IMG/VR virus record: IMGVR_UViG_2693429733_000011
Coordinates: 1 to 8,574 of that record
Origin: a virus
Lineage: Duplodnaviria; Heunggongvirae; Uroviricota; Caudoviricetes
Strand: one strand, 5' to 3'
DNA: 8,574 nucleotides
Made by a program: the position numbers and the translations under genes. This document shows positions 5,037 through 5,345 of this stretch, in pieces (the stretch's first letter is position 1; every line of letters starts with the position of its first letter). Below the pieces are notes generated by a model. It made no database searches. It saw only the letters and a list, made by a program, of their open reading frames with translations, and was not told the origin of the DNA.

Positions 5037-5111
5037 TGGAGCGGGCAGCGGGAATCGAACCCGCATCATCAGCTTGGAAGGCTGAGGTAATAGCCATTAT
5101 ACGATGCCCGC
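5037..5111 (-). tRNA. tRNA-Gly (anticodon UCC)
   Basis: Hand-folded cloverleaf: 7-bp acceptor GCGGGCA/TGCCCGC, anticodon stem TCAGC/GCTGA with loop CTTCCAA, GGTTCGATTCC T-arm, 3' CCA encoded. Matches E. coli glyT as I remember it. Confidence 0.85.
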
Positions 5112-5114
5112 ATA

Positions 5115-5189
5115 TGGTGCGACTACCGGAATCGAACTGGTGACCTACTGATTACAAGTCAGTTGCTCTACCTACTGAGCCAAGTCGGC
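5115..5189 (-). tRNA. tRNA-Thr-like (anticodon UGU), possibly defective
   Basis: Anticodon stem ACTGA/TCAGT with loop CTTGTAA; D-arm GCTC/GAGC; T-loop TTCGATT. By my hand fold the 3' acceptor strand is one nucleotide short (AGTCGC-A-CCA against 5' GCCGACT) and the T-stem has an A-C mismatch. Confidence 0.55.
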
Positions 5190-5191
5190 AC

Positions 5192-5268
5192 TGGACCGCC
5201 ACCGGGGACTCGAACCTCGCACACTCAACTTAAAGGGTTGACGCTCTTTCCTGATGAGCTAGTGGCGG
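5192..5268 (-). tRNA. tRNA-like gene, anticodon UUU (Lys) by position, with non-canonical features
   Basis: Acceptor CCGCCAC/GTGGCGG, D-arm GCTC/GAGC, anticodon stem TCAAC/GTTGA with loop CCTTTAA (C at position 33 instead of U), T-loop TTCGAGT with one A-C mismatch in the T-stem, CCA encoded. Confidence 0.45.
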
Positions 5269-5269
5269 T

Positions 5270-5345
5270 TGGTGGCCCTTGCTGGATTTGAACCAGCGAC
5301 CTGGCGATTATGAGTCGCTCGCTCTCACCACTGAGCTAAAGGGCC
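5270..5345 (-). tRNA. tRNA with CAU anticodon, most like ileX-type tRNA-Ile2 (lysidine), alternatively elongator tRNA-Met
   Basis: Acceptor GGCCCTT/AAGGGCC, anticodon loop CTCATAA, T-loop TTCAAAT; high similarity to E. coli ileX as I recall it. CCA encoded. Confidence 0.75.

Follow-up and report, generated by a model that had tools for sequence, protein, structure and literature searches.

Why would a temperate phage carry four closely packed transfer RNA (tRNA) genes at the start of its late region, and why do two of them look abnormal? The question is raised by an 8,574-nucleotide (nt) stretch of a Caudoviricetes virus (IMG/VR virus record IMGVR_UViG_2693429733_000011, positions 1 to 8,574), which we analysed as a whole and refer to as the window. 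An original prediction held that its tRNA array differs from the ileZ–argN–argO array of Shiga toxin (Stx) phages, that it is expressed mainly under antitermination by Q, and that its atypical members, with anticodons UUU and UGU (Thr), could be pseudo-tRNAs, tRNAs of altered identity or variants that evade anticodon nucleases. We find instead that the array is recognizably a variant of ileZ–argN–argO, although not a strict member, as its second and third genes are not Arg(UCG) and Arg(UCU) tRNAs. It carries a predicted σ70 promoter of its own and its second gene is, as read from its sequence, an argN whose anticodon was changed from UCG (Arg) to UUU (Lys). The array is genuine, hundreds of genomes already carry annotations of it, and taken alone it is an ordinary phage tRNA cluster.

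All four genes lie on the minus strand and were called by ARAGORN. Membership of the tRNA family was judged by the covariance score for Rfam RF00005 against its gathering threshold of 29 bits, which all four exceed with E-values from 5e-7 to 8e-15; the matches are far beyond chance. The CCA end is encoded in every gene, and the gaps measure 1 nt between ileZ and the UUU gene, 2 nt between the UUU and Thr genes and 3 nt between the Thr and Gly genes, as tight a packing as had been predicted. Three of the genes (ileZ, UUU and Gly) have N73 and CCA directly after a 7-base-pair (bp) acceptor stem, and the Thr gene of the window does not. U33 is present in ileZ, Thr and Gly and is replaced by C33 in the UUU gene.

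The UUU gene is identical at 65 of 77 positions (84%) to argN, which in Stx phages stands next after ileZ and encodes an Arg(UCG) tRNA, against 58% identity to the host lysT; it is therefore an Arg scaffold that now reads Lys codons. With argN it shares an unusual scaffold, consisting of a C1–G72 pair, U73, the Y15/R48 combination and an A51×C63 mismatch in the T stem; its further bases include C16, A17, C33 and U36-A-A-G-U-U41. The anticodon loop, CUUCGAA in argN, reads CCUUUAA here (C32 C33 U34 U35 U36 A37 A38). The 17-nt anticodon arm holds six of the 12 changes relative to argN (U33C, C35U, G36U, G30A, C40U and G43A). G30A and C40U together replace a G:C pair by A:U and so compensate each other, G43A turns U·G into U–A, and two further changes convert the wobble pairs G3·U70 and U7·G66 into Watson–Crick pairs; all five stem differences thus yield Watson–Crick pairs, one of them through a double compensatory change.

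Other origins for this gene were considered and rejected. The exact 17-nt anticodon arm occurs on no other tRNA in IMG/VR, and its five other matches there carry no tRNA, which speaks against transplantation of the arm from another tRNA. Nor did other anticodons appear on the argN scaffold: a scan of viral contigs for a purine at position 35 came back empty, and only UCG and UUU occur in the 125 segments that we analysed in total, including 119 IMG/VR loci brought in by a pattern scan for the T arm of the scaffold.

Altered identity, as the original prediction had allowed, is an apt description of this member of the array, which has an Arg scaffold and a Lys anticodon. The bases U34-U35-U36 are the main determinant for lysyl-tRNA synthetase (LysRS). 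The UUU gene has them, and it lacks both the discriminator A73 (it has U73) and descent from a tRNA-Lys. Its product would be a second Lys(UUU) tRNA, structurally unrelated to that of the host and probably charged by LysRS through the anticodon. Separately, G3·U70 is the main identity element for AlaRS. This wobble pair is found in argN of an Stx phage (locus L005, 2632–2708) and in the UUU gene of the PPompW prophage (L006, 3234–3309), and UUU genes of the window type have G3–C70; Ala mischarging of argN may occur.

Could the UUU gene instead be a pseudogene? It has the lowest Rfam score of the four and the most variable columns, it carries C33, and D-stem-deletion alleles occur in the defective PPompW prophages (PMC8112680). 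Against this, argN scores 43.0 bits in RF00005, as low as the 44.4 bits of the UUU gene, so the low score is a property of the scaffold and not of decay, and the stem differences between the two genes all keep pairing. The T-stem mismatch and the C33 that had been noticed in this gene are both present, but the mismatch does not indicate decay: argN shares it, and A52×C62 occurs in host thrU. Nine of the 12 one-sided stem polymorphisms retain a standard pair, and the substitutions that break a stem are singletons. The anticodon UUU and C33 are invariant in 118 of 118 UUU-type copies, in which position 32 is C, U or A, and the main allele is present in sequenced Escherichia phage genomes. We consider it distinctly improbable that this gene is a pseudogene.

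The remaining two genes are copies of host genes. The Gly gene matches K-12 glyT at 75 of 75 positions, in agreement with its presumed host origin, and the common prophage allele of the Thr gene is likewise identical to K-12 thrU (76 of 76). The Thr gene of the window retains 74 of 76 positions; it has A9G and a 1-nt deletion that removes one G from the 3′ strand of the acceptor stem (GUCGGC to GUCGC), which accounts for the shortened acceptor stem suspected earlier. It folds either with a bulged C3 (the Rfam register) or with a 5-bp stem that lacks a proper discriminator and CCA (the ARAGORN register). This deletion allele is found in just 3 of 106 loci, namely the window, FDAARGOS_943 (L002) and an IMG/VR contig (L084), and the other 103 are intact. 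Across the array region the three loci share at least 99.76% identity, and the deletion looks like a single mutational event in one lineage. With a lesion that is helix-breaking, rare and lineage-restricted, the Thr allele of the window fits the earlier label of pseudo-tRNA and is likely to be inactive.

A broader version of the decay argument holds that the atypical members are all functionless, a ruined argN copy and a broken thrU copy that hitch-hike with ileZ. The Thr deletion, which breaks the 7-bp stem and occurs in a single lineage, and a frameshift in the Q gene of the FDAARGOS_943 locus are consistent with decay, but the UUU gene shows the maintained pairing described above. As an account of the array, general decay seems quite unlikely.

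In K-12 the counterparts of the last two genes belong to the thrU–tyrU–glyT–thrT operon. Common-allele Thr and Gly genes are base-identical to their host counterparts and stand in the same order, whereas tyrU, a 116-nt spacer, thrT and all flanks are missing from the prophage. The two copies are joined by 3 nt (TAT, 5112–5114 of the window), without flanking homology to the host operon, in which tyrU and the 116-nt spacer lie between thrU and glyT (L004, 465–673). The capture of thrU and glyT was therefore not a simple copying of a DNA segment.

The first gene has a phage history. It is identical at 76 of 76 positions to ileZ of phage Stx2a_F349 and 89.5% identical to K-12 ileX, so that the host origin suggested for it gives way to the phage ileZ lineage. 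Its acceptor stem (GGCCCUU/AAGGGCC) has the pairs C4–G69 and C5–G68, by which TilS tells tRNA-Ile2 from tRNA-Met. The NCBI Prokaryotic Genome Annotation Pipeline (PGAP) labels it tRNA-Ile, and the ‘Met’ label of ARAGORN is based solely on the CAT anticodon. We predict that it is a tRNA-Ile2, to be lysidinylated, that reads AUA.

Side by side with the array of Stx2a_F349 (AP012530), the kinship is plain. Both arrays follow Q, pR′ and tR′ and precede late genes; both begin with the identical ileZ, separated by 1 nt from a second gene on the scaffold with C1–G72, U73 and A51×C63; and both have the promoter TTGCAA-N17-TATTAT. The claim that the array of the window differs from the classic one therefore does not hold for its framework. 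It does differ in its second gene, which is UUU and not UCG and has C33, G3–C70 in place of G3·U70 and a remodelled anticodon stem; in the swap of argO (UCU) for thrU and glyT copies; and in what lies downstream, where a structured RNA and a holin gene stand instead of stx genes. The array would thus be a recombinant ileZ–argN–argO, in which promoter and ileZ were kept, argN was re-anticodoned and argO was replaced by copies of thrU and glyT. The history of the classic cassette is taken from GenBank annotation; in the searchable full-text literature, no paper was found for ileZ together with argN.

At a coverage of at least 80%, the 601-bp array region occurs in 338 of the 5,426 complete E. 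coli genomes searched, as well as in three records of sequenced Escherichia phages. Most of the loci analysed (96 of 125) have the order ileZ–UUU–Thr–Gly, 13 have ileZ–UUU–argO-like, the form of PPompW, a defective prophage of O157 (PMC8112680), and 7 have ileZ–argN–argO; in phage phi467, stx is followed by Thr–Gly. Because these forms mix members across loci, the cassette is modular. Among 77 complete arrays (57 haplotypes), 3 columns vary in ileZ, 16 of 77 in the UUU gene, 9 in Thr and 6 in Gly, against nearly every column in the 200-nt flanks. The argN scaffold occurs, among GTDB species representatives, only in E. coli and Shigella flexneri. An exact match to the scaffold pattern in a Solirubrobacterales metagenome-assembled genome (L128, 5928–5970) was set aside as chance, as ARAGORN finds no tRNA at that locus. 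In PPompW (L006, 3234–3397), one nucleotide is missing from the D stem of the UUU gene, the argO-like gene ends in CTA and not CCA, and ISEc20 lies just downstream; this cassette looks, from these lesions, like a decaying copy. The idea that the tRNA genes serve as attachment sites for secondary prophages was rejected, because the attB sites reported resemble yecE, ykgJ–ecpE and ompW and tRNAs are not mentioned (PMC8112680).

How the array is expressed bears directly on what it is for. Upstream of ileZ lies a candidate σ70 promoter with a −35 element TTGCAA (5383–5378), a 17-nt spacer and a −10 element TATTAT (5360–5355), the latter 9 nt from the 5′ end of mature ileZ. Across the 57 haplotypes, which comprise at least five diverged upstream lineages, the TTG of the −35 element and the entire TATTAT are the only invariant upstream columns; the spacing of 17 nt is kept in all haplotypes and the distance of 9 nt to ileZ in all save one group with a 1-nt insertion. 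An identical TTGCAA-N17-TATTAT precedes ileZ in the Stx2 phage Stx2a_F349. Differential RNA sequencing of an Stx2a lysogen placed a primary start site downstream of tR′ and ahead of the tRNAs and stx2AB, which its authors assigned to the downstream tRNAs (PMC7547250). Given the conserved site, which the reported start site fits, we conclude that the array carries a dedicated, predicted σ70 promoter.

These observations can be set against the view that the array belongs to the late transcript, is expressed mainly through Q and is unrelated to ileZ–argN–argO. Its location does fit, as it lies, in line with the original prediction, downstream of a pR′-like promoter and a tR′ hairpin that follow the Q gene, and read-through by Q must therefore contribute. 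However, a conserved promoter stands between tR′ and ileZ, where the start site of the Stx2a lysogen also falls, ileZ is identical to that of the Stx array and its neighbour is homologous to argN. We regard mainly Q-driven expression of an unrelated array as very unlikely; with a promoter of its own, the array would only gain from Q read-through and would not depend mainly on it. In the lysogen, transcription would come from the array’s own promoter, and during lytic growth Q-antiterminated read-through from pR′ would be added. The primary transcript would begin a few nucleotides upstream of ileZ and, because all genes encode CCA and the spacers are 1–3 nt, cuts by RNase P and 3′ trimming would free the four tRNAs.

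Table 1. Positions of the tRNA genes, promoters and short transcript in the window
Feature	Position	Strand	Basis
ileZ, tRNA-Ile2, anticodon CAU	5270–5345	−	RF00005 72.5 bits; ARAGORN
tRNA gene on argN scaffold, anticodon UUU (‘tRNA-Lys’)	5192–5268	−	RF00005 44.4 bits; ARAGORN
thrU copy, tRNA-Thr, anticodon UGU, damaged	5115–5189	−	RF00005 58.6 bits; ARAGORN
glyT copy, tRNA-Gly, anticodon UCC	5037–5111	−	RF00005 64.9 bits; ARAGORN
Array’s own σ70 promoter (predicted)	5355–5383	−	Consensus scan; conservation across haplotypes
pR′-like late promoter, TTGCAA-17-TATATT, overlapping the end of the Q gene	5528–5556	−	Consensus scan, 9/12 matches
Short pR′-to-tR′ transcript	5447–5524	−	Ends in hairpin AAAACCCGC-CCACAA-GCGGGUUUU followed by UU

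The stem of the tR′ hairpin, located by folding, lies at 5476–5453, and the hairpin with its UU is assigned to 5476–5447, for a transcript of about 75 nt. Over 5451–5524 two small RNAs of the Salmonella Gifsy prophages match this transcript below the Rfam threshold: isrK at 22.7 bits (E = 0.015) and isrJ at 24.5 bits (E = 0.041). IsrK, StxS and the 6S RNA of lambda are short RNAs from an antiterminated promoter (PMC7547250), and by analogy the transcript may be a regulatory RNA of the StxS/IsrK type.

What might such an array supply? We compared codon use in the late genes of PhiR47_1, a complete array-bearing phage (7956 codons), with that of a K-12 sample (14,589 codons). Codons of three of the four tRNAs are over-used in the phage: ATA 2.3-fold (p = 3e-5), ACA 1.6-fold (p = 9e-4) and GGA 1.4-fold (p = 7e-3). 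AAA, at 1.06-fold, does not differ significantly, and the Arg codons AGA and AGG are enriched 3.1-fold (p = 2.6e-5) and 6.8-fold (p = 1.4e-9). Codon supply is therefore a reasonable role for ileZ and the Thr and Gly genes, which would act as extra decoders of AUA, ACA and GGA, codons that are host-scarce and over-used by array-bearing phages. It is a poor explanation of the UUU gene, for which codon compensation as the sole account is ruled out by the lack of AAA enrichment, and, with AGA and AGG enriched, it accounts only weakly for argO having been lost. A comparable set is known from T4, a virulent phage whose tightly packed, RNase P-processed tRNA cluster includes Ile(CAU), Thr(UGU), Gly(UCC) and Arg(UCU), decoders of A-ending codons that E. 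coli seldom uses. We know of no sequence relationship between that cluster and the array of the window, and of no tRNA-Lys in T4.

Taken together, the array would be a compact, independent tRNA operon nested where the late region of an E. coli or Shigella prophage begins, the prophage being lambdoid and of the Q/RusA/DUF968 type. As an overall description, an operon that supplies scarce decoders and adds a spare tRNA-Lys is, in our judgement, somewhat probable. Several observations weigh against it. Besides the flat use of AAA, which the UUU tRNA would read, and the enrichment of AGA and AGG even though the Arg tRNAs were the ones lost, ATA is not enriched in the window’s own late genes, which are a small sample. 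C33, U73 and C1–G72 are unusual both for a LysRS substrate and for an elongator tRNA. The UUU gene is moreover the most polymorphic of the four, with U8C in 17 copies, the allele C4U/U8C/C11U in 16 and a 1-nt D-stem deletion in 15, and covariation among 13 scaffold variants was not significant, the one double change being reached in 159 of 500 shuffles.

Because supply explains the UUU gene so poorly, host tRNA-Lys being multicopy (five genes in one K-12 cluster) and AAA not over-used, a defensive role deserves attention. The UUU tRNA might be a spare tRNA-Lys that escapes recognition by tRNA nucleases of the host or of competitors, such as AriB of PARIS, PrrC and RloC, and so maintains decoding of AAA and AAG after cleavage of host tRNA-Lys; the Thr(UGU) copy would then top up the second main target of PARIS. 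We hold this role to be possible but doubtful. AriB cuts C40/A41 within U36AAUCA41; U39A abolishes and A41C and U16C impair cleavage, and T5 escapes with a resistant tRNA-Lys that has U36AAACC41 and C16 (PMC12409363, PMC11464382). With U36AAGUU41 (G39, U40 and U41), C16 and A17, the UUU tRNA differs at every tested AriB determinant, half of its differences from argN are in the anticodon arm, and its invariant C33 lies on the 5′ side of the bond cleaved by PrrC (PMC1950546). Insensitivity to these nucleases is thus a concrete prediction. Its mere 58% identity to lysT points the same way but is an automatic consequence of its Arg-tRNA ancestry, and damaging alleles of the UUU gene (U8C and the D-stem deletion) are tolerated at appreciable frequency. 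Evasion could in any case apply only to the UUU gene, not to the host-identical genes for which it had also been considered: the Thr tRNA is host thrU (UAAUCA) and ought to be as cleavable as its host counterpart, and Gly(UCC) is not known to be targeted.

Phage T5 offers a close parallel with its tRNA-Lys(UUU). Both tRNAs depart from the host sequence at the AriB-required positions 39, 41 and 16, both have C16, and in both phages a Thr(UGU) gene accompanies the one for Lys(UUU). Unlike the tRNA of the window, that of T5 resembles lysT and has A73 and U33, in place of an Arg scaffold with U73 and C33; the Thr tRNA of the array is host-identical and not a variant, and the phage is temperate and not virulent. 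A more far-reaching proposal, that lambdoid prophages made a nuclease-proof tRNA-Lys(UUU) by re-anticodoning argN and that its constitutive expression buffers both induced phage and lysogen, is suggested by these base comparisons and seems to us unlikely. In the searchable literature, we did not find descriptions of the argN-to-UUU switch with its fixed C33, of the host-identical thrU–glyT module or of the match to AriB determinants.

The surroundings of the array are those of a mosaic prophage, as no complete E. coli genome matches the window over its full length (the best match covers 61%). The minus strand encodes, in order, a DUF968 gene (7649–6591), RusA (6590–6225) and the antiterminator Q (6234–5545), the last identified from the PGAP annotation of near-identical loci. 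The pR′-like promoter, the tR′ hairpin, the second promoter and the four tRNAs follow, so that the array stands between Q/pR′/tR′ and the holin gene (4744–4529), beyond which come lysozyme, Rz and the terminase genes. A run of masked bases (N) at about 4355–4400, seen as X in translations of the open reading frames, falls within the lysozyme gene, whose intactness therefore cannot be judged. Upstream of the DUF968–RusA–Q block, the window holds a putative toxin–antitoxin pair (8002–8322, plus strand, and about 8300–8574): a 106-amino-acid open reading frame corresponds in position to the ParD-family antitoxin annotated beside a RelE/ParE toxin in the near-identical FDAARGOS_943 locus (L002).

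Between tRNA-Gly and holin, 292 nt of the minus strand (4745–5036) contain three perfect hairpins with arms of 11, 14 and 9 bp. The minimum free energy of this region is −92.5 kcal/mol, compared with −70.0 kcal/mol for shuffled sequences (z = −4.8). A weak, putative terminator-like element, GCCCGCUUUUGCGG followed by a U-run, lies near 4836–4810, downstream of the hairpins.

With a promoter of its own, the array probably contributes its tRNAs to the tRNA pool of the lysogen and is not a lytic supplement alone. In the UUU gene we see a clear natural example of a switch in codon family by a tRNA gene, from Arg(UCG) to Lys(UUU), on a scaffold that is still recognizable and with C33 fixed. If the evasion role is true, the UUU tRNA would buffer its carriers against defence and competition systems that cleave tRNA-Lys, such as PARIS, PrrC, RloC and possibly P2 Old. 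It also offers a cheap and direct test of whether temperate phages share the tRNA-replacement counter-defence that has so far been shown for the virulent phage T5.

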